Positions 884 through 46,825 of a stretch of 64,000 nucleotides of DNA are shown here, in pieces; position 1 is the first letter of the stretch, and the number at the start of each line of letters is the position of its first letter. Location of the stretch: the NCBI RefSeq assembly GCF_003018235.1, contig NZ_CP027437.1; one strand, written 5' to 3'. The notes beneath the pieces were generated by a model that did not search any database, had not been told where the DNA came from, and saw only the letters and a program-made list of their open reading frames with translations. The position numbers were made by a program, and so were the translations under genes. Source of the stretch: Escherichia coli (GTDB taxonomy: Bacteria > Pseudomonadota > Gammaproteobacteria > Enterobacterales > Enterobacteriaceae).

Positions 884-3118
884 ATGGTTGCGGTAAGAAG
901 TGCACATATCAATAAGGCTGGTGAATTTGATCCGGAAAAATGGATCGCAAGTCTGGGTATTACCAGCCAGAAGTCGTGTGAGTGCTTAGCCGAAACCTGG
1001 GCGTATTGTCTGCAACAGACGCAGGGGCATCCGGATGCCAGTCTGTTATTGTGGCGTGGTGTTGAGATGGTGGAGATCCTCTCGACATTAAGTATGGACA
1101 TTGACACGCTGCGGGCGGCGCTGCTGTTCCCTCTGGCCGATGCCAACGTAGTCAGCGAAGATGTGCTGCGTGAGAGCGTCGGTAAGTCGGTCGTTAACCT
1201 TATTCACGGTGTGCGTGATATGGCGGCGATCCGCCAGCTGAAAGCGACGCATACCGATTCTGTTTCCTCCGAACAGGTCGATAACGTTCGCCGGATGTTA
1301 TTGGCGATGGTCGATGATTTTCGCTGCGTGGTCATCAAACTGGCAGAGCGTATTGCTCATCTGCGCGAAGTAAAAGACGCGCCGGAAGATGAACGCGTAC
1401 TGGCGGCAAAAGAGTGCACCAATATCTACGCGCCGTTGGCGAACCGTCTTGGGATTGGACAACTGAAATGGGAGCTGGAAGATTACTGCTTCCGTTATCT
1501 CCACCCGACCGAATACAAACGCATCGCAAAACTGCTGCATGAACGCCGTCTCGACCGCGAACACTATATCGAAGAGTTTGTCGGTCATCTGCGCGCTGAG
1601 ATGAAAGCTGAAGGCGTTAAAGCTGAAGTGTATGGTCGTCCGAAACACATCTACAGCATCTGGCGCAAAATGCAGAAAAAGAACCTCGCCTTCGATGAGC
1701 TGTTTGATGTGCGTGCGGTACGTATTGTCGCCGAGCGTTTACAGGATTGTTATGCCGCACTGGGGATAGTGCACACTCACTATCGCCACCTGCCGGATGA
1801 GTTTGACGATTACGTCGCTAACCCGAAACCAAACGGTTATCAGTCTATTCATACCGTGGTTCTGGGACCAGGTGGCAAAACCGTAGAGATCCAAATCCGC
1901 ACCAAACAGATGCATGAAGATGCAGAGTTGGGTGTTGCTGCGCACTGGAAATATAAAGAAGGCGCGGCAGCTGGCGGCGCACGTTCGGGACATGAAGACC
2001 GAATTGCCTGGCTGCGTAAACTGATTGCGTGGCAGGAAGAGATGGCTGATTCCGGCGAAATGCTCGACGAAGTACGCAGCCAGGTCTTTGACGACCGGGT
2101 GTATGTCTTTACGCCGAAAGGTGATGTCGTTGATTTGCCTGCGGGATCAACACCGCTGGACTTCGCTTACCACATCCACAGTGATGTCGGACACCGCTGC
2201 ATCGGGGCAAAAATTGGCGGGCGCATTGTGCCGTTCACCTACCAGCTGCAGATGGGCGACCAGATTGAAATTATCACCCAGAAACAGCCGAACCCCAGCC
2301 GTGACTGGTTAAACCCAAACCTCGGTTACGTCACAACCAGCCGTGGGCGTTCGAAAATTCACGCCTGGTTCCGTAAACAGGACCGTGACAAAAACGTTCT
2401 GGCTGGGCGGCAAATCCTTGACGACGAGCTGGAACATCTGGGGATCAGCCTGAAAGAAGCAGAAAAACATCTGCTGCCGCGTTACAACTTCAATGATGTC
2501 GACGAGTTGCTGGCGGCGATTGGTGGCGGGGATATCCGTCTCAATCAGATGGTGAACTTCCTGCAATCGCAATTTAATAAGCCGAGTGCCGAAGAGCAGG
2601 ACGCCGCCGCGCTGAAGCAACTTCAGCAAAAAAGCTACACGCCGCAAAACCGCAGTAAAGATAACGGTCGTGTGGTGGTTGAAGGTGTCGGTAACCTGAT
2701 GCACCACATCGCGCGCTGCTGCCAGCCGATTCCTGGAGATGAGATTGTCGGCTTCATTACCCAGGGACGCGGTATTTCAGTACACCGCGCCGATTGCGAA
2801 CAACTGGCGGAACTGCGCTCCCATGCGCCAGAACGCATTGTTGACGCGGTATGGGGTGAGAGCTACTCCGCCGGATATTCGCTGGTGGTCCGCGTGGTGG
2901 CTAATGATCGTAGTGGGTTGTTACGTGATATCACGACCATTCTTGCCAACGAGAAGGTGAACGTACTTGGCGTTGCCAGCCGTAGCGACACCAAACAGCA
3001 ACTGGCGACTATCGACATGACCATTGAGATTTACAATCTGCAAGTGCTGGGCCGCGTGCTGGGTAAACTCAATCAGGTGCCAGACGTTATCGACGCGCGT
3101 CGGTTGCACGGGAGTTAG
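884..3118 (+). CDS. relA: GTP pyrophosphokinase, (p)ppGpp synthetase I
   Basis: 744-aa ORF with RBS aaggagagg upstream; RelA/SpoT family sequence; synteny with mazEF. Confidence 0.95.
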   Translation: MVAVRSAHINKAGEFDPEKWIASLGITSQKSCECLAETWAYCLQQTQGHPDASLLLWRGVEMVEILSTLSMDIDTLRAALLFPLADANVVSEDVLRESVGKSVVNLIHGVRDMAAIRQLKATHTDSVSSEQVDNVRRMLLAMVDDFRCVVIKLAERIAHLREVKDAPEDERVLAAKECTNIYAPLANRLGIGQLKWELEDYCFRYLHPTEYKRIAKLLHERRLDREHYIEEFVGHLRAEMKAEGVKAEVYGRPKHIYSIWRKMQKKNLAFDELFDVRAVRIVAERLQDCYAALGIVHTHYRHLPDEFDDYVANPKPNGYQSIHTVVLGPGGKTVEIQIRTKQMHEDAELGVAAHWKYKEGAAAGGARSGHEDRIAWLRKLIAWQEEMADSGEMLDEVRSQVFDDRVYVFTPKGDVVDLPAGSTPLDFAYHIHSDVGHRCIGAKIGGRIVPFTYQLQMGDQIEIITQKQPNPSRDWLNPNLGYVTTSRGRSKIHAWFRKQDRDKNVLAGRQILDDELEHLGISLKEAEKHLLPRYNFNDVDELLAAIGGGDIRLNQMVNFLQSQFNKPSAEEQDAAALKQLQQKSYTPQNRSKDNGRVVVEGVGNLMHHIARCCQPIPGDEIVGFITQGRGISVHRADCEQLAELRSHAPERIVDAVWGESYSAGYSLVVRVVANDRSGLLRDITTILANEKVNVLGVASRSDTKQQLATIDMTIEIYNLQVLGRVLGKLNQVPDVIDARRLHGS

Positions 3119-13229: not shown

Positions 13230-13407
13230 ATCGTATTCCCATTTGTAATAGACAAAAAAAAGAGAAAAGTAAGCCGCCCTTTCAGGTGGATTACTTTTCT
13301 CAGGTCTCTAGTAATTGCAATAAGAAATAACATGGAAAGTAGTGGTGTTGTGTGAGAGTAATCACGCTTCTGCTTTTTAAAATTATTTGACAATTCGAAT
13401 ATCACAC

Positions 13408-13423
13408 TGTGATTACGATCACA
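13408..13423. promoter_or_regulatory. Candidate CRP binding site in the yqcE/ygcW divergent region
   Basis: tgtgattacgatcaca = TGTGA-N6-TCACA, perfect match to both CRP consensus half-sites. Confidence 0.5.
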
Positions 13424-39113: not shown

Positions 39114-40540
39114 TGGCATTTGATGATTTACGCAGCTTTTTACAGGCGCTTGATGACCACGGCCAGTTACTGAAAATCAGCGAAGAGGTGAACGCGGAAC
39201 CGGATCTGGCAGCCGCAGCCAACGCCACCGGGCGTATCGGCGACGGCGCGCCCGCGCTTTGGTTTGATAATATTCGCGGCTTTATCGATGCCCGCGTGGC
39301 AATGAACACCATCGGTTCCTGGCAGAACCACGCGATTTCCCTCGGCCTGCCGCCAAACACCCCGGTTAAAAAACAGATTGATGAGTTTATCCGCCGCTGG
39401 GATAACTTCCCCATTACCCCGGAGCGCCGCGCTAATCCAGCCTGGGCGCAGAACACCGTCGATGGCGACGAGATCAACCTGTTCGATATTCTGCCGCTGT
39501 TTCGTTTAAACGACGGTGATGGCGGTTTCTATCTCGATAAAGCGTGCGTGGTTTCCCGCGATCCGCTCGACCCGGATAACTTCGGCAAGCAGAACGTCGG
39601 CATCTACCGCATGGAAGTGAAGGGCAAACGTAAGCTCGGCCTGCAACCGGTGCCGATGCACGATATCGCTCTGCATCTGCATAAAGCGGAAGAACGCGGT
39701 GAAGATCTGCCGATTGCCATCACCCTGGGTAACGATCCGATCATCACCCTGATGGGCGCCACGCCGCTGAAATACGATCAGTCTGAGTACGAAATGGCGG
39801 GCGCGCTGCGCGAAAGCCCGTACCCGATCGCCACCGCCCCGCTGACCGGTTTTGATGTGCCGTGGGGCTCGGAAGTGATCCTCGAAGGGGTTATCGAAAG
39901 TCGTAAACGTGAGATTGAAGGGCCGTTCGGTGAGTTTACCGGCCACTACTCCGGCGGGCGTAACATGACCGTGGTGCGTATCGATAAAGTCTCTTACCGT
40001 ACCAAACCGATTTTCGAATCGCTCTATCTTGGTATGCCGTGGACCGAAATCGACTACCTGATGGGGCCTGCCACCTGCGTGCCGCTGTATCAGCAACTGA
40101 AAGCCGAGTTCCCGGAAGTGCAGGCGGTAAACGCCATGTACACCCACGGCCTGTTGGCGATTATCTCCACCAAAAAACGCTACGGCGGCTTTGCCCGCGC
40201 GGTGGGCCTGCGTGCAATGACCACGCCGCACGGTCTGGGCTACGTGAAGATGGTGATTATGGTCGATGAAGACGTTGATCCGTTCAACCTGCCGCAGGTG
40301 ATGTGGGCGCTCTCCTCGAAAGTGAACCCGGCAGGCGACCTGGTGCAGTTGCCAAATATGTCCGTGCTGGAACTCGACCCTGGCTCAAGCCCGGCGGGGA
40401 TCACCGACAAGCTGATTATCGACGCCACCACGCCTGTCGCCCCGGACAACCGTGGTCACTACAGCCAGCCGGTGGTGGATTTACCGGAAACCAAAGCCTG
40501 GGCTGAAAAACTGACCGCTATGCTGGCCGCACGTAAATAA
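39113..40540 (+). CDS. ecdC: UbiD-family (prFMN-dependent) aromatic acid decarboxylase, C subunit
   Basis: 475-aa ORF, UbiD family; start overlaps the UbiX-like stop; symbol from memory. Confidence 0.85.
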   Translation: MAFDDLRSFLQALDDHGQLLKISEEVNAEPDLAAAANATGRIGDGAPALWFDNIRGFIDARVAMNTIGSWQNHAISLGLPPNTPVKKQIDEFIRRWDNFPITPERRANPAWAQNTVDGDEINLFDILPLFRLNDGDGGFYLDKACVVSRDPLDPDNFGKQNVGIYRMEVKGKRKLGLQPVPMHDIALHLHKAEERGEDLPIAITLGNDPIITLMGATPLKYDQSEYEMAGALRESPYPIATAPLTGFDVPWGSEVILEGVIESRKREIEGPFGEFTGHYSGGRNMTVVRIDKVSYRTKPIFESLYLGMPWTEIDYLMGPATCVPLYQQLKAEFPEVQAVNAMYTHGLLAIISTKKRYGGFARAVGLRAMTTPHGLGYVKMVIMVDEDVDPFNLPQVMWALSSKVNPAGDLVQLPNMSVLELDPGSSPAGITDKLIIDATTPVAPDNRGHYSQPVVDLPETKAWAEKLTAMLAARK

Positions 40541-40550
40541 GGAGAACAAG

Positions 40551-40787
40551 ATGATTTGTCCACGTTGTGCCGATGAACAGATTGAAGTGATGGCGAAATC
40601 GCCGGTAAAAGATGTCTGGACGGTCTACCAGTGCCAGCATTGCCTCTATACCTGGCGCGATACCGAACCGCTACGCCGCACCAGCCGCGAACATTATCCC
40701 GAAGCGTTCCGCATGACGCAGAAAGATATTGATGACGCGCCGATGGTGCCGAGCATCCCGCCGCTGCTGGCGGAAGGTAAGCGCTAA
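40551..40787 (+). CDS. ecdD: Decarboxylase small subunit D (Cys-rich, zinc-ribbon-like)
   Basis: 78-aa ORF MICPRCADEQ...CQHC; typical third gene of bsdBCD/kpdBCD-type operons; symbol from memory. Confidence 0.75.
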   Translation: MICPRCADEQIEVMAKSPVKDVWTVYQCQHCLYTWRDTEPLRRTSREHYPEAFRMTQKDIDDAPMVPSIPPLLAEGKR

Positions 40788-40790
40788 ATA

Positions 40791-40818
40791 AAAAGTCCGA
40801 TGCCCATCGGACCTTTTT
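40791..40818. terminator. Bidirectional terminator between the decarboxylase operon and convergent ygbN
   Basis: aaaa gtccgatg ccc atcggac ctttttatt: hairpin flanked by A- and T-runs. Confidence 0.7.
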
Positions 40819-40825
40819 ATTAAGG

Positions 40826-42190
40826 TCAAATTACCGCCCATACGCACCAGGTAATTAAGAATCCGGTAAAACCGAGAATGGTCGTTAACACTGTCCAGGT
40901 TTTCAGACCGTCTGCTACCGACAACCCCAGATATTTGGTCACAATCCAGAACCCTGAGTCATTAATATGTGACGCGCCAAGCCCACCAAAGCAGGCTGCC
41001 AGCGTCACCAATACGCACTGAATCGGATTCAATCCCATCACCGCTTCTGAGAGTAACCCGCCGGTTGTCAGGATTGCTACGGTTGCTGACCCCTGCGATG
41101 CACGCAGCGCCAGTGAAATAATAAATGCGGCTGGTAACAGAGGCAGGTCAATCATTTGTAGCATGTTGGCAAGGGCTTTGCCGACGCCCGATTCCACCAG
41201 CACTTTGCCAAATACCCCTCCAGCACCAGTAACCAAAATCACTACCGCCGCAGTGGGAAGGGCTGAGCCCATAATGTCGCTGGTGTGTTGTAAGCTCCAG
41301 CCGCGACGTAAAGCCAATAACCAGAATGCCAGCACCAGCGCAATCATTAGAGCTACCATTGGTGAGCCGATCAGCTGTAGCGTACCAAGCAGGGGATGCG
41401 AAGGCGGCATCAGTGTTGCGGAAACCGTACCCGCCATGATAATCGCGATAGGAATAACAATTAGCGAGGTGACCAGCGCGACGCCCGGTGGATTTATTTT
41501 ATCGCTTAATTTTGTCGCGCCTTCCTCACTGGCCGGAGCCAGTTGCATCTGTTCCAGTACTTCCACCGACATCGCATATTGGCGCTTATTGATTATTTTC
41601 GCTGCAAAGTAGCCAACAATCCCTACTGGAATAGAAATCGCAATACCGATGATGGTTAGCCAGCCGATGTCTGCGTGGAGTAACCCCGCTGCGGCGACAG
41701 GGCCTGGATGCGGCGGTACCGCCACATGAACAGTTAGCATGATTCCAGCGACAGGCAGGCCAAATTTGAGTGGCGATATTTTGGCAACCTTGGCAAAACC
41801 GTAAATGATTGGCGCAAGAATAATAAAGCCGACATCAAAGAAGACGGGAATACCGAGGAAGAACGCTGCCAGAGTCAGCGCAGCGATAGTTCGTTTGTCA
41901 CCTAACTTGCGACTGAAATAATTAGCCAGTGACTCTGCACCACCAGAGTGTTCGATCATACGCCCCAGCATAGCACCCAGACCAATAATAATAGTGACGG
42001 AACCAAGCACACCGCCCATCCCGGCGATCATCACTTTACCCACTTCGCCCGCTGGTATACCCGCCGCAAGTGCGACTAACAGGCTGACGAGGAGCAGAGC
42101 AACGAATGGTTGTACCTTTGCCTTGATGACCAGCAGCAACAGCATGATTACGCCAGTTAACGCAATGCATAACAATGTAATTGTGGACAT
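40826..42190 (-). CDS. ygbN: GntP-family permease (putative acid-sugar transporter)
   Basis: 454-aa polytopic membrane ORF; synteny with ygbM-ygbI. Confidence 0.88.
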   Translation of the reverse strand: MSTITLLCIALTGVIMLLLLVIKAKVQPFVALLLVSLLVALAAGIPAGEVGKVMIAGMGGVLGSVTIIIGLGAMLGRMIEHSGGAESLANYFSRKLGDKRTIAALTLAAFFLGIPVFFDVGFIILAPIIYGFAKVAKISPLKFGLPVAGIMLTVHVAVPPHPGPVAAAGLLHADIGWLTIIGIAISIPVGIVGYFAAKIINKRQYAMSVEVLEQMQLAPASEEGATKLSDKINPPGVALVTSLIVIPIAIIMAGTVSATLMPPSHPLLGTLQLIGSPMVALMIALVLAFWLLALRRGWSLQHTSDIMGSALPTAAVVILVTGAGGVFGKVLVESGVGKALANMLQMIDLPLLPAAFIISLALRASQGSATVAILTTGGLLSEAVMGLNPIQCVLVTLAACFGGLGASHINDSGFWIVTKYLGLSVADGLKTWTVLTTILGFTGFLITWCVWAVI

Positions 42191-42278
42191 GGGAAACCCT
42201 GTCTGAAAGTTATAGTTAACCTACCCCATCCGTAGATGGGGGGATGTATGGGTACGTTGTAATTAGGGATTTAACGAA

Positions 42279-43055
42279 TTAGCGCCAGGCGTCAAACCAG
42301 CCAAGCCCTTCTTCGGTGAGGCCACGAGGTTTATATTCACAACCGATCCAGCCCTGATATCCCACCTCATCGAACAGGCGGAACAGCCACGGATAGTTGA
42401 TTTCTCCATCGTCCGGTTCATGTCGATCAGGTAGTCCGGCAATTTGTACGTGCGCATATTTCCCGGCGTAGTCGCGGATTAAATGCGTCAGGTTGCCATC
42501 TACTTTTTGCGCATGAAAAGTATCTAGTTGAATAAACACGTTATCTCGCGCAACTTCTTCAACAATAGCCAGTGCCTGATACTGGCTGGAGAAGAGATAA
42601 TGAGGCTTAACGCCGGGGCTGAGTGCTTCAACTAATATTCGCTTGCCGTGTGGCGCAAAGCGGTCGGCAGCGTAGCGGAGATTATCGATAAATACTGCCC
42701 TGTACCGTTCAGCATCTTCGCCAGCGGGCACGACGCCTGCCATCACATGGACTTGTTCACAATTGAGCGCCAATGCATATTCCAGTGCCAGGTCGATGTC
42801 TGCGTGTGCTTCGTGCTCACGTCCGGGAAGGGCGGATAATCCCCATTCCCCCGCATTAATATCTCCGGGAGCGGTATTGAACAGCGCCAGTGTCAGATGG
42901 TTTTGCTCCAGTTGCTTTTGGATTTGCAGGGTGGAGTAGTCATAGGGAAACAGAAATTCCACAGCATCGAACCCGGCTTTTCGCGCTGCGGCGAAGCGTT
43001 CAATAAAAGGCACTTCGGTGAACATCATGGATAAATTAGCTGCAAAACGAGGCAT
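42279..43055 (-). CDS. otnI: 2-oxo-tetronate isomerase (hydroxypyruvate isomerase family)
   Basis: 258-aa ORF; xylose-isomerase-like TIM barrel; former ygbM. Confidence 0.85.
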
Positions 43056-43059
43056 TGCA

Positions 43060-43698
43060 TTAACTCCTTAATTCCGCAATTTCACCTGCGGTCAGATAAC
43101 GGATCGGGCGATCACCGAGAATAAAAATCAGCTTTGCCGTTTCCTCCAGCTCTTCCATATTGTTGGCGGCTTCTTGCAGGCTTTCACCGCAAACCACTGG
43201 GCCATGATTTGCCAGTAAAAAAGCCTGATTGTCTGCTGCCAGTTCCGCCAGATCCTGTGCGATGCGTTTATCGCCCGGTCGGTAATAAGGCACCAGCGGG
43301 ATATTTCCCATCCGCATCACCACGTATGGTGTGAACGGACGAATAACGTTGCTGCTGTCCAGCCCTTGCAGGCAGGAAAGCGCCGTCGACCATGTGCTGT
43401 GCAAATGCACCACCGCTTTACAGCGCGGATTGTTGCGATACAGCGCCAGATGAAAGAGCACCTCTTTCGAGGGTTTGTCACCACTTAACCATTCGCCATC
43501 CGCGGCGACTTTGGAAAGCCGCTGCGGATCGAGATTGCCCAGGCATGAACCTGTCGGTGTCGCCAGTAAATTCCCGTCAGGTAAAAGCAGCGACAGATTG
43601 CCAGCCGAACCGGTTGCATAGCCGCGCTGAAAGAATGAACTGGCAATCCGCGTCATCTCCTCTCGCAAAGACTGCTCTACTTTTGCGAAATCGCTCAT
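43060..43698 (-). CDS. otnC: 3-oxo-tetronate 4-phosphate decarboxylase (class II aldolase/adducin family)
   Basis: 212-aa ORF; former ygbL. Confidence 0.85.
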
Positions 43699-44957
43699 GA
43701 TAAAAACTCTCTTTGGGCTCGTGAAAAAAAGGCGTCATCACCGAAGTTGCCAGATTTAAGGGCGAGTGAGACAGGCTTATCCAGTGCGTTTACCCACGGC
43801 ACGCCGGGGGAAATGGTTGGGCCAATATGAAACCCTTTTATTCCCAGGCTCTGTGTGACTACGCCGGAGGTCTCACCGCCTGCGACAATAAAGCGTGTTA
43901 CGCCTTCCGCGGCTAACCGCGTCGCTAGTTGAGAAAACAGTGTTTCTACTGCCTGACTGGCTTTTTGTGCACCGTATTGCTGTTGAATTGCTGCCAATGC
44001 GTCAGTGCTGGCGGTGGCAAAAACCAGTGGAGCAAGTACACTTTCCTGGCCCAGAACCCACTCTGCCAGTTCGTGTGCATAAGCGGCCAGAGTTTCAATT
44101 GAGAGGCAGCGTGCCACATCAACTTCACGGGCTGGTGCAATTTGACGGTAATGTGCTACCTGGCGGTTGGTCATTTGAGAGCATGAACCGGAGAGCACTA
44201 CGCCGCGCCCAGCGAGCGGATGCCCTGCTTTGCGAGCCTGGTTACCGTTTTCTTGCGCCCACTGCCGGGCAAGGCCAATCGCCAGACCAGAACCGCCCGT
44301 TACCAGTGGGGCATCGCGCAAGGCTTCTCCCTGAATTTCCAGATGGTGTTCGGTCAGCGCATCAAGCACCGCGTAGCGGTAGCCCTCTTGCTGTAAGCGA
44401 GCCAGCTCTTGACGAACGGCATCCACACCTTGTTCGAAAACATGTGCCGAAACGACGCCGCAGCGCCCTGTGGATTGCGCTTCAACCAGACGGGGAAGAT
44501 AGCTGTCGGTCATGGGATTTACCGGGTGATGGCGCATCCCGGATTCGGCCAGCAGTTGATTCATTACGAACAAATACCCCTGATAAACCGTACGTCCGTT
44601 GACCGGCAGGGCCGGAGAGAAGACCGTAAACGGCGTGTCGAGAGCATCCATTAATGCATCGGTAACCGGGCCGATATTACCTTTCGCCGTACTGTCGAAA
44701 GTAGAGCAGTATTTGAAATAGATCTGTTTGCAACCTTGCTGTTGCAACCAGCTCAGAGCCGCCAGCGATTGCTGTGTGGCTTCAACCACCGGACAGGAAC
44801 GCGTTTTCAGGCTGATCACCAGTGCGTCGATTGCTTCCGGCATTTTACTTGTTGGAACACCGTTAATTTGTACCGTTGGTAGACCGTTTTCCACCAGAAA
44901 ACTGGCGATATCCGTCGCGCCGGTAAAATCATCGGCGATAACGCCAATCTTGATCAT
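43695..44957 (-). CDS. otnK: 3-oxo-tetronate kinase (four-carbon acid sugar kinase family)
   Basis: 420-aa ORF starting MIKIGVIADDFTGATD; former ygbK; exact start not verified. Confidence 0.8.
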   Translation of the reverse strand: MIKIGVIADDFTGATDIASFLVENGLPTVQINGVPTSKMPEAIDALVISLKTRSCPVVEATQQSLAALSWLQQQGCKQIYFKYCSTFDSTAKGNIGPVTDALMDALDTPFTVFSPALPVNGRTVYQGYLFVMNQLLAESGMRHHPVNPMTDSYLPRLVEAQSTGRCGVVSAHVFEQGVDAVRQELARLQQEGYRYAVLDALTEHHLEIQGEALRDAPLVTGGSGLAIGLARQWAQENGNQARKAGHPLAGRGVVLSGSCSQMTNRQVAHYRQIAPAREVDVARCLSIETLAAYAHELAEWVLGQESVLAPLVFATASTDALAAIQQQYGAQKASQAVETLFSQLATRLAAEGVTRFIVAGGETSGVVTQSLGIKGFHIGPTISPGVPWVNALDKPVSLALKSGNFGDDAFFSRAQREFLS

Positions 44958-45862
44958 GATTTCGCTCCCGGTAGAGTGATGCCAGAGAAAATCTTGATAA
45001 CTGCGCTATCGTCTTCTTTCCCGTAACCCGCGTTACTGGCGCTGGTGAACATATTCAATGCTGTTGAGGCCAATGGCAGCGGGAAGTGCAGGGCTTTGGC
45101 TGTATCGGCAACCAGACCAAGATCCTTAACAAAAATATCGACGGCTGAATGCGGGGTGTAATCGCCATCCACCACATGACGCATCCGGTTTTCGAACATC
45201 CAGGAATTTCCGGCGGCATTGGTCACGACGTCATACATCACATCCAGCGGGATCCCCGCACGGGCTGCAAGTGCCATCGCTTCGGCTCCGGCAGCAATAT
45301 GTACGCCCGCTAACAACTGGTGAATAATTTTTACGGTCGAACCTAGTCCCGGTTCTGCACCTATGCGATAAACTTTTCCGGCAACGGCTTCCAGCACAGG
45401 TGCCAGTCGTTCAAAGGCAATATCGCTACCGGAGGCCATGACAGTCATTTCACCGTTAGCGGCTTTTACTGCACCACCAGAAACTGGCGCATCCAGCATT
45501 TCCAGATCGAATCCAGCCAGAGCGGTAGCAATTTCTTGCGCATCAGCACTAGCGATAGTGGAAGAAACCATTACTGCCGTACCGGGTTTCAGATGTTGTG
45601 CAACGCCTGTTTCACCAAACAGCACCTGTTTAACCTGGGCCGCATTGACCACCAGCACCAGCAGAGCGTCCAGTTTTTCGGCAAACGTCGCGGCGTTATC
45701 AGAAACCCCGCAAGCACCTGCCTCTTTCAACGTAGCGCAGGCATTGCTGTTCAGGTCTGCGCCCCAGGTAGAAAGACCTGCGCGGACACATGACAGTGCT
45801 GCTCCCATTCCCATTGACCCTAAGCCAACGATACCGACATGAAACTCAGATCCCGTTTTCAT
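44954..45862 (-). CDS. ltnD: L-threonate dehydrogenase (3-hydroxyisobutyrate dehydrogenase family)
   Basis: 302-aa ORF with N-terminal Rossmann GLGSMGMG; former ygbJ. Confidence 0.85.
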   Translation of the reverse strand: MKTGSEFHVGIVGLGSMGMGAALSCVRAGLSTWGADLNSNACATLKEAGACGVSDNAATFAEKLDALLVLVVNAAQVKQVLFGETGVAQHLKPGTAVMVSSTIASADAQEIATALAGFDLEMLDAPVSGGAVKAANGEMTVMASGSDIAFERLAPVLEAVAGKVYRIGAEPGLGSTVKIIHQLLAGVHIAAGAEAMALAARAGIPLDVMYDVVTNAAGNSWMFENRMRHVVDGDYTPHSAVDIFVKDLGLVADTAKALHFPLPLASTALNMFTSASNAGYGKEDDSAVIKIFSGITLPGAKS

Positions 45863-46027
45863 CTGCTCTCCTTGTTAATTTAAGTGATATTTTGTTTGAT
45901 ATTGTGAATATAAGCGCTGGAAGATAACGATATGGTGAGCTGATTCACATAAATTAACATTGCGTGTTATTTTATGTGAACTAAGTGTTAGTTGCGCCGC
46001 GCACGTTTCGCAGGCAAATAGCGTAGA

Positions 46028-46825
46028 ATGTCAGCAGGACAAAGGAAGGAGCAAAAGTTGATACCCGTAGAGCGTCGCCAAATCATCCTTGAGATGGTAG
46101 CTGAAAAAGGCATTGTCAGTATTGCTGAACTAACGGACAGAATGAATGTGTCACATATGACCATTCGTCGGGATTTACAAAAACTGGAGCAGCAGGGAGC
46201 CGTTGTGCTGGTGTCCGGAGGCGTCCAGTCTCCGGGACGCGTGGCGCATGAACCTTCTCATCAGGTAAAAACTGCGCTGGCAATGACGCAAAAAGCGGCT
46301 ATTGGCAAGCTGGCGGCAAGTCTTGTTCAGCCGGGACGTTGTATCTATCTGGATGCGGGAACGACCACGCTAGCGATAGCACAGCATCTGATTCACATGG
46401 AGTCACTGACTGTGGTCACAAACGATTTCGTTATTGCGGACTACTTGCTCGACAACAGTAATTGCACAATTATTCACACTGGCGGTGCAGTGTGTCGGGA
46501 AAACCGTTCCTGTGTCGGGGAAGCCGCTGCGACCATGCTGCGCAGCCTGATGATTGATCAGGCTTTTATTTCTGCATCGTCATGGAGTGTGCGGGGGATT
46601 TCTACGCCAGCGGAAGATAAAGTCACGGTGAAACGGGCGATTGCCAGTGCCAGCCGCCAGCGAGTTTTGGTCTGTGATGCGACGAAATATGGTCAGGTGG
46701 CGACATGGCTGGCGTTACCATTAAGCGAGTTTGATCAGATTATTACAGACGACGGTTTGCCGGAGAGTGCCAGTCGCGCGCTGGCGAAGCAGGATCTCTC
46801 TTTGCTGGTAGCGAAAAATGAATAA
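46028..46825 (+). CDS. ygbI: DeoR-family transcriptional regulator
   Basis: 265-aa ORF with HTH (VSHMTIRRDL); an alternative TTG start 30 bp downstream would give 255 aa. Confidence 0.85.
   Translation: MSAGQRKEQKLIPVERRQIILEMVAEKGIVSIAELTDRMNVSHMTIRRDLQKLEQQGAVVLVSGGVQSPGRVAHEPSHQVKTALAMTQKAAIGKLAASLVQPGRCIYLDAGTTTLAIAQHLIHMESLTVVTNDFVIADYLLDNSNCTIIHTGGAVCRENRSCVGEAAATMLRSLMIDQAFISASSWSVRGISTPAEDKVTVKRAIASASRQRVLVCDATKYGQVATWLALPLSEFDQIITDDGLPESASRALAKQDLSLLVAKNE

Follow-up and report, generated by a model that had tools for sequence, protein, structure and literature searches.

A conserved array of phased TGT(G/T)A boxes between ltnD and ygbI of Escherichia coli, most likely operators of the repressor YgbI, overlaps a CRP site

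Introduction

Which protein reads the TGTGAA and TTCACA motifs that recur between the divergent genes ltnD (ygbJ) and ygbI of Escherichia coli? A prediction made from the sequence of this locus proposed that three such motifs are operator half-sites of the DeoR-family regulator YgbI. This E. coli regulator was de-orphaned recently, and because ChIP-exo gave a single target it has no published motif; none was found in our search of the literature. The single genome-wide ChIP-exo site lies between ygbI and ygbJ, deletion of ygbI raised the expression of ygbJ, K, L, M and N by log2 5.6, 5.2, 5.1, 4.6 and 4.0 (15-47-fold), and the authors concluded that YgbI is a repressor (Gao et al. 2021). In ygbI mutants from ALE both the ygbJKLMN cluster and ygbI itself are overexpressed, which is consistent with autoregulation. 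The copy number of YgbI is 2-6 per cell.

The regulator-target pair, the repressor role and a CRP site at this locus are already published, and what appears to be new here is only the base-level map of the operators and the promoter. The circuit is ordinary control by a repressor plus CRP, and the map an incremental refinement and not a new kind of element. An operator model would nevertheless make it possible to predict the YgbI regulon in other Enterobacterales, Pasteurellaceae and Aeromonas, and would explain how catabolite control and specific induction are combined in an operon for four-carbon acid sugars (threonate/erythronate, and promiscuously tartrate).

Results

The window, the whole stretch of E. 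coli DNA that was analysed, is 64,000 nucleotides long. Thousands of E. coli chromosomes match its positions 45700-46200 at 99-100% identity, and the two genes are annotated there as ltnD and ygbI (DNA-binding transcriptional repressor YgbI). The L-threonate dehydrogenase gene ltnD occupies 44954-45862 on the minus strand, with its ATG at 45862, is annotated as such in E. coli RefSeq, and scores 473.6 bits with the NCBIfam model ThreonDh (cutoff 350). On the plus strand ygbI, a DeoR-family repressor gene of 255 codons with a TTG start, runs from 46058 to 46825 in the RefSeq (K-12) coordinates; its product scores 481.6 bits with the NCBIfam model trans_reg_YgbI (cutoff 400) and has the Pfam domains HTH_DeoR at the N-terminal (59.4 bits) and DeoRC, the sensor domain, at the C-terminal (173.9 bits). 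Annotation and model scores thus bear out the flanking genes named in the original prediction. The spacer had been taken to end at 46027, which is wrong; with the TTG at 46058 it is 45863-46057, 195 bp with 39% GC. A longer ygbI reading frame, from an ATG at 46028, was abandoned because the mapped ygbI transcription start, at about 46037 and 21 nt upstream of the TTG, falls within it, and the -10 hexamer TAGAAT (cgTAGAAT) of the mapped promoter is found at 46024-46029 on the plus strand (Mendoza-Vargas 2009). The AAATAGCGTAGAAT block at this -10 is kept in close relatives.

The ygbJKLM(N) cluster, which begins with ltnD, is tightly packed. Within 40826-45862 the ltnD/otnK and otnK/otnC pairs overlap by 4 nt each, the gap between otnC and ygbM is 4 nt, and ygbN follows after 88 nt. 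Upstream of ygbM and ygbN no operator-like unit was matched with up to one mismatch (40000-45000). The absence of an internal unit, together with the tight gene packing, favours a single promoter region and transcription unit for the whole cluster, as far as the sequence can tell, over the three separate operons proposed along with the ChIP-exo data (Gao et al. 2021). A search of 45700-46200 against Rfam (E <= 1) gave no RNA element, and no terminator-like site was found in the spacer.

The three motifs are present in the spacer. TGTGAAT starts at 45903 and ATGTGAAC at 45974, both on the plus strand, which places TGTGAA at 45903 and 45975; the motif between them is also there, but ATTCACA starts at 45943 and not at 45944, which is the start of TTCACA (45944-45949). 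At least three copies of TGTGAA were found in 0.015% of dinucleotide shuffles of the spacer, and when post-hoc choice is allowed for, some hexamer occurs at least three times in 47% of the shuffles. Because of the latter figure the triple hexamer, taken alone, is not beyond chance.

What is repeated is a 5-bp TGT(G/T)A-type box that comes back every 10 bp, and not, as had been assumed, a TGTGAA hexamer standing alone. There are eight such boxes and not three, the TGTTA variants having been missed, and they are arranged in 10-bp phase in three blocks, O1, O2 and O3, with starts at 45873, 45883, 45893 and 45903 (plus), 45959 and 45949 (minus), and 45965 and 45975 (plus). The boxes pair up into two-box units with the consensus form TGTTAAnnnnWGTGA. 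O1 (45873-45908, plus strand), the putative YgbI block nearest to ltnD, consists of four direct boxes in exact 10-bp phase, TGTTAA at 45873, AGTGAT at 45883, TGTTTG at 45893 and TGTGAA at 45903, the last being the first motif of the original prediction. O2 (45945-45959, minus strand) is the two-box unit TGTTAATTTATGTGA and O3 (45965-45979, plus strand) the two-box unit TGTTATTTTATGTGA, both exact matches to TGTKA-N5-WGTKA; the third motif is carried by O3. Together they form a 37-bp palindrome, TTCACATAAATTAACA ttgcg TGTTATTTTATGTGAA (45944-45980), in which a repeat finder gave arms of 16 nt (45944-45959 and 45965-45980) that are complementary at 15 of 16 positions (94%) across a gap of 5 nt. 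The palindrome has the second motif at one outer end and the third at the other. Its arm recurs at 45873-45887 as a third copy, TGTTAATTTAAGTGA, and a fourth two-box copy, with one mismatch, is found at 45893.

None of 2000 shuffles held a 16-nt inverted repeat with at most one mismatch, and the three matches to TGTKA-N5-WGTKA in the 64 kb, where 0.61 would be expected for the whole window, are all inside the 195-bp spacer. A ninth box, TGTTA at 45986, lies under the ChIP-exo interval and was not counted; K-12 has CGTTA at this place, and its conservation is 0.37. A role of the palindrome as an RNA hairpin was dropped, because neither the mapped ygbI transcript nor the predicted ltnD transcript includes it. 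Inside ygbI there are two one-mismatch matches to the two-box unit on the minus strand, at 46393-46407 and 46464-46478, 71 bp apart. These may be chance, because the 64-kb window has 11 such matches.

A CRP box, GGTGAgctgatTCACA, is situated at 45934-45949 with its centre at 45941.5, and agrees with the consensus at 9 of the 10 half-site positions. The sequence GGTGAGCTGATTCACA has one mismatch to TGTGA-N6-TCACA and is one of four such sites in the 64 kb. The K-12 allele taTGTGAatcagaTCACCata (ygbI/ygbJ), from which the box in the window differs by one spacer base, was reported as a novel CRP site with a Kd of 8.4 nM in vitro (2026 Footprint-seq preprint). The TGTGA box of O2 is common to the distal half-site, TCACA, of the CRP box. 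The middle motif of the original prediction can thus not be assigned to YgbI alone, because TTCACA at 45944-45949 is also this distal half-site.

Downstream of the CRP box, as read from ltnD's strand, conserved T.Ta columns mark a predicted -10 of the ltnD promoter, TATATT, at 45907-45912 on the minus strand (read from 45912 to 45907), and in every genus the T.Ta block keeps the same distance of 19 nt to the CRP box. From the position of TATATT and the 19-nt gap we infer that ltnD transcription starts near 45900 and that the CRP box is centred at about -41.5, which would be class II geometry. A simple sigma-70 scan gave no promoter on the minus strand and no recognisable -35 for ltnD. The absence of a -35 is as expected for class II CRP promoters. 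In the frame of the predicted start, O1 would extend from about -8 to +28, O2 from -45 to -59 and O3 from -65 to -79.

To follow the boxes in relatives, 80 genomic loci of diverse YgbI orthologues were fetched, of which 67 keep the divergent ltnD-ygbI order. An alignment of 23 genus-level Enterobacterales representatives was nearly gap-free over the ltnD-proximal 100 nt. The conservation that was called for is found here for boxes 1-6: the identity to the E. coli base is 0.86-0.99 for boxes 1-6 (0.86-0.98 for the O1 boxes and 0.91-0.99 for O2), 0.85 for the predicted -10 and 0.81 for the proximal CRP half-site, against 0.27 for the CRP spacer, 0.31 for the stretch between the -10 and the CRP box, and 0.33 for the centre of the palindrome. 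The two halves of the CRP box are kept (GTG 0.91-1.00, TCACA 0.95-1.00) and its spacer is free. The O1 boxes stand in perfect register in 21 of 21 genus representatives, as TGTTAAnnnn(A/G)GTGATnnnnTGTTnnnnnnTGT(G/T)AA. The four-box O1 pattern is matched by 45 of the 67 orthologous spacers, and a fused module of the CRP box and O2 is likewise present in 45 of the 67, where it lies 53-80 nt, in most cases 67-75 nt, away from the start of ltnD. The CRP box can be recognised from Escherichia (Enterobacterales) to Pasteurellaceae, e.g. TGTGATCCACATCACA.

The contrast between boxes and surroundings is also seen in pairwise comparisons, where we set the 50 annotated positions (the eight boxes, the -10 and the proximal CRP half-site) against the 73 positions outside. 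Salmonella differs from E. coli at 1 of the 50 and 37 of the 73 (p = 5e-10), E. albertii at none of the 50 and 15 of the 73 (p = 2e-4), Entomohabitans at 6 and 40, and Edwardsiella at 8 and 48, respectively. The window itself differs from K-12 at four spacer positions, three of them outside the annotated positions and the fourth the T/C at 45986 in the discounted ninth box.

In 55 non-redundant spacers linked to ygbI there were 378 TGTKA boxes, compared to 89 +/- 8 in shuffles, and the distances between boxes on the same strand had their sharpest peak at 10 bp (76 observed, 0.26 expected), followed by 30, 40 and 20 bp; these counts are a measure of conservation and not of independent events, because the spacers share ancestry. 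O3 is kept only in the clade of Escherichia (E. albertii), Salmonella, Entomohabitans and Edwardsiella, and an equivalent inverted unit is found in Pasteurellaceae and Aeromonas. It is absent from the spacers of Pantoea, Erwinia, Pectobacterium and Serratia, which have additional units elsewhere in the spacer, the ygbI -10 included. Since E. coli, Salmonella and Edwardsiella have no units over the ygbI -10, the autoregulation of ygbI is, judging from these layouts, probably wired differently between clades. The box family, as traced by its pattern, reaches well beyond Enterobacterales. In agreement with a conserved DNA target, the HTH segment VSHMT(I/V)RRD of YgbI was invariant among 17 diverse orthologues but for the I/V at one position.

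Some of these spacers have features of their own. Longer spacers, of 216-354 bp, are found in Serratia, Pectobacterium, Dickeya and Pantoea (L009-L022 and L025-L053, immediately upstream of position 3001), with extra units over the ygbI -10, e.g. GTGAATTTATGATAA and TCACAATTATTATCAC, which E. coli, Salmonella and Edwardsiella lack. In Succinivibrionaceae and Anaerobiospirillum (L057, L059, L061, L066 and L069) the spacers are 357-683 bp with many TGTGAA boxes that form runs in 10-bp phase, e.g. TGTTAAAGATTGTGAAATATTGTG, and no obvious fused CRP box was seen in these five. One locus, RKCM01000024.1 (L002), is labelled 'Oscillospiraceae bacterium MAG', and its ygbI-ltnD locus is 99% identical to that of E. 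coli; the contig almost certainly comes from Escherichia and was mis-binned.

The YgbI ChIP-exo interval of 31 bp (NC_000913.2 2859304-2859334, S/N 12.5) maps onto 45980-46010 in the window. For this mapping the offset between NC_000913.2 and NC_000913.3 at the locus is one that we take to be about 1977-1978, and a check against a FliA motif inside ltnD gave 1976.5 at the motif centre. The interval touches the last base of O3, covers no box and is 70-100 bp away from O1, and the sequence under it is poorly conserved, even in Salmonella. That the interval adjoins the boxes, and is not on them, is the main weakness in assigning the boxes to YgbI. We read this displacement as limited resolution, or as border pairing on a large complex.

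Discussion

ChIP-exo found YgbI at a single region of the genome, and the presence there of a conserved repeated box that travels with ygbI orthologues is in line with what the original prediction had proposed, although the unit and the number of boxes are different and one box is not for YgbI alone. Going by its pattern of conservation, the eight-box array most likely represents the operators of YgbI. We think it probable, with some reservation, that the spacer is a compact divergent control region in which a CRP-dependent class II promoter of ltnD is shut by YgbI bound to the phased boxes. The genes ltnD-otnK-otnC-ygbM(-ygbN) would be transcribed leftwards from this promoter, with CRP at 45934-45949 and the start near 45900. 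YgbI would read the 5-bp TGT(G/T)A boxes, one per helical turn, as two-box units of the form TGTTAAnnnnWGTGA. Bound at the four boxes of O1, from the -10 to about +28, it would block the RNA polymerase, and bound at O2, where the TGTGA is common to the distal CRP half-site, it would exclude CRP. O3 would be the inverted partner of O2 that completes the 37-bp palindrome. When glucose is absent and the inducer present, YgbI would come off, CRP would bind and the operon would fire.

It is conceivable, but rather doubtful, that this amounts to a mimicry of half-sites, in which one pentamer serves both as YgbI box and as CRP half-site, so that repressor and activator read one and the same TGTGA at O2. 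A YgbI oligomer on the eight boxes, about 110 bp, would then be a roadblock for the RNA polymerase at O1 and at the same time evict CRP at O2. Such a module would have been kept from Pasteurellaceae to Escherichia, and may recur at other CRP promoters, e.g. idnK.

Other explanations for the repeats have to be considered. All TGTGA/TCACA motifs could be half-sites for several CRP dimers and be unrelated to YgbI, as TGTGA is the CRP half-site consensus, the one true CRP site takes in the middle motif, and weak CRP sites can lean on a single half-site (2026 Footprint-seq preprint). The geometry makes this very unlikely, since the inverted TGTGA-N6-TCACA arrangement is found in the spacer only at 45934-45949 and the other boxes are direct repeats in 10-bp phase. 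Moreover, boxes 1, 6 and 7 are TGTTA and box 3 is TGTTT in E. coli, not TGTGA, and CRP needs the G that TGTT(A/T) boxes lack; conservation also takes in the TTAACA partner box, to which no CRP site extends. It seems likewise unlikely, if a little less so, that the repeats are kept as promoter elements. TTCACA is similar to a -35 (5/6 of TTGACA), and the palindrome would in that case consist of overlapping ygbI and ygbJK promoters placed face to face. Our scan did find TTCACA-18-TATTTT on the plus strand at 45944-45973, with a TG before the -10, and the same ygbI promoter was predicted by Shimada 2014, together with another ygbJK promoter, TTCACA-16-GTTAAT, inside the palindrome, in a fragment from RNA polymerase gSELEX. 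However, the only ygbI start that has been mapped is the one at about 46037 with TAGAAT as its -10, and not at about 45980. Any plausible ltnD -10 is upstream of the O1 boxes, and for none of these, the motif at 45903 included, is there a partner -10 at a distance of 16-18 nt. The TGTTA variants are not -35-like and yet equally conserved, and for the 10-bp phasing of four direct boxes there is no promoter rationale. The operator and the -35 readings are compatible, and an operator over a secondary promoter would give autoregulation.

Finally, the repeats might be a product of chance in an AT-rich spacer without a sequence-specific reader. The spacer has the low GC content and the frequent repeated hexamers in shuffles (39% and 47%, see above) that such a view calls for, and H-NS binding has been flagged for it (Shimada 2014). 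The 16-nt inverted repeat was not reproduced in any shuffle, the two-box unit is confined to this spacer in the 64 kb, the conservation compared to Salmonella is specific to the boxes, and their register is held over 21 genera. This pattern of conservation effectively refutes chance, which we regard as extremely unlikely.

The proposed arrangement has much in common with known members of the DeoR family. GlpR of the E. coli glp regulon is, like YgbI, a DeoR/GlpR-family repressor, and it uses repeated sites over and downstream of the promoter. The GlpR operons have 4-8 sites each, and their expression needs CRP as well as inducer, an AND-gate of repressor release and cAMP-CRP that resembles the control proposed for ltnD. 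The half-site of GlpR is approximately WATGTTCGWT. Unlike GlpR, the ltnD-ygbI spacer has the box TGT(G/T)A, one box is physically common to a CRP half-site, and there is a single operon as target. DeoR of the E. coli deo operon is a paralogous repressor with HTH_DeoR and DeoRC domains, and as here it has multiple operators around one promoter region. Its half-site is TGTTAGAA and its operator the palindrome TGTTAGAA-TTCTAACA. The half-site TGTTAGAA opens with the TGTTA pentamer, as do boxes associated with YgbI. DeoR loops DNA and forms octamers. Its half-sites abut in a compact palindrome of only 16 bp, whereas the arms in the ltnD-ygbI palindrome are 16 nt each and contain two boxes 10 bp apart, and O1 is made up of direct repeats, unlike the inverted DeoR sites. 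As for the activator, class II CRP promoters have CRP near -41.5, a position that at ltnD depends on the predicted start; what ltnD shares with them is the 9/10 match to TGTGA-N6-TCACA, the high-affinity CRP binding in vitro, the fixed 19-nt gap between box and predicted -10, and the lack of a recognisable -35.

VdtR of Brucella, also of the DeoR family and likened to YgbI as a homologue, controls a homologous ltnD/otnK (erythronate/threonate) cluster. It bound several ltnD promoter fragments in EMSA, and neither free L-threonate nor D-erythronate released it in vitro, which suggests that a downstream intermediate is the inducer. The inducer of YgbI would probably be a phosphorylated four-carbon acid-sugar intermediate. 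Unlike the YgbI locus, no motif is defined for VdtR, and in alphaproteobacterial relatives ltnD is not divergent from the regulator.

Other places where YgbI might bind have been named. A 'putative YgbI box' at dgcZ is referred to in a paper on EPEC, on the basis of unpublished laboratory work that saw no regulation. The leu promoter region, suggested as a YgbI target by Reg-Seq, was rejected here, as it had only matches with two mismatches, at background rate. In the same approach, Reg-Seq, YgbI was pulled down on the idnK promoter by DNA-affinity mass spectrometry. The K-12 idnD-idnK spacer (L083:960-990, NC_000913.3 about 4494459-4494489) contains TGTCATTATTTGTGA, a match to the two-box unit with one mismatch, and fused to this match is the CRP-like box TGTGATGAAGATCACG; the two are arranged as O2 and the CRP box are in the ltnD-ygbI spacer. 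The chance of finding such a one-mismatch unit in 216 bp is about 0.04, and as a YgbI target the idnD-idnK unit is suggestive only, going by its sequence.

Two further sites in the window correspond to published ones. The motif inside ltnD that served as a check on the mapping, at 45101-45128 on the minus strand, is identical to the intragenic motif TAAGGATCTTGGTCTGGTTGCCGATACA bound by FliA upstream of ygbK (Fitzgerald et al. 2014). Far from the spacer there are two CRP-type boxes, at 13351-13366 and 13408-13423, 57 bp apart. The latter, TGTGATTACGATCACA, is a perfect match to CRP and is the ygcW/yqcE site, with a Kd of 1.7 nM (2026 Footprint-seq preprint).
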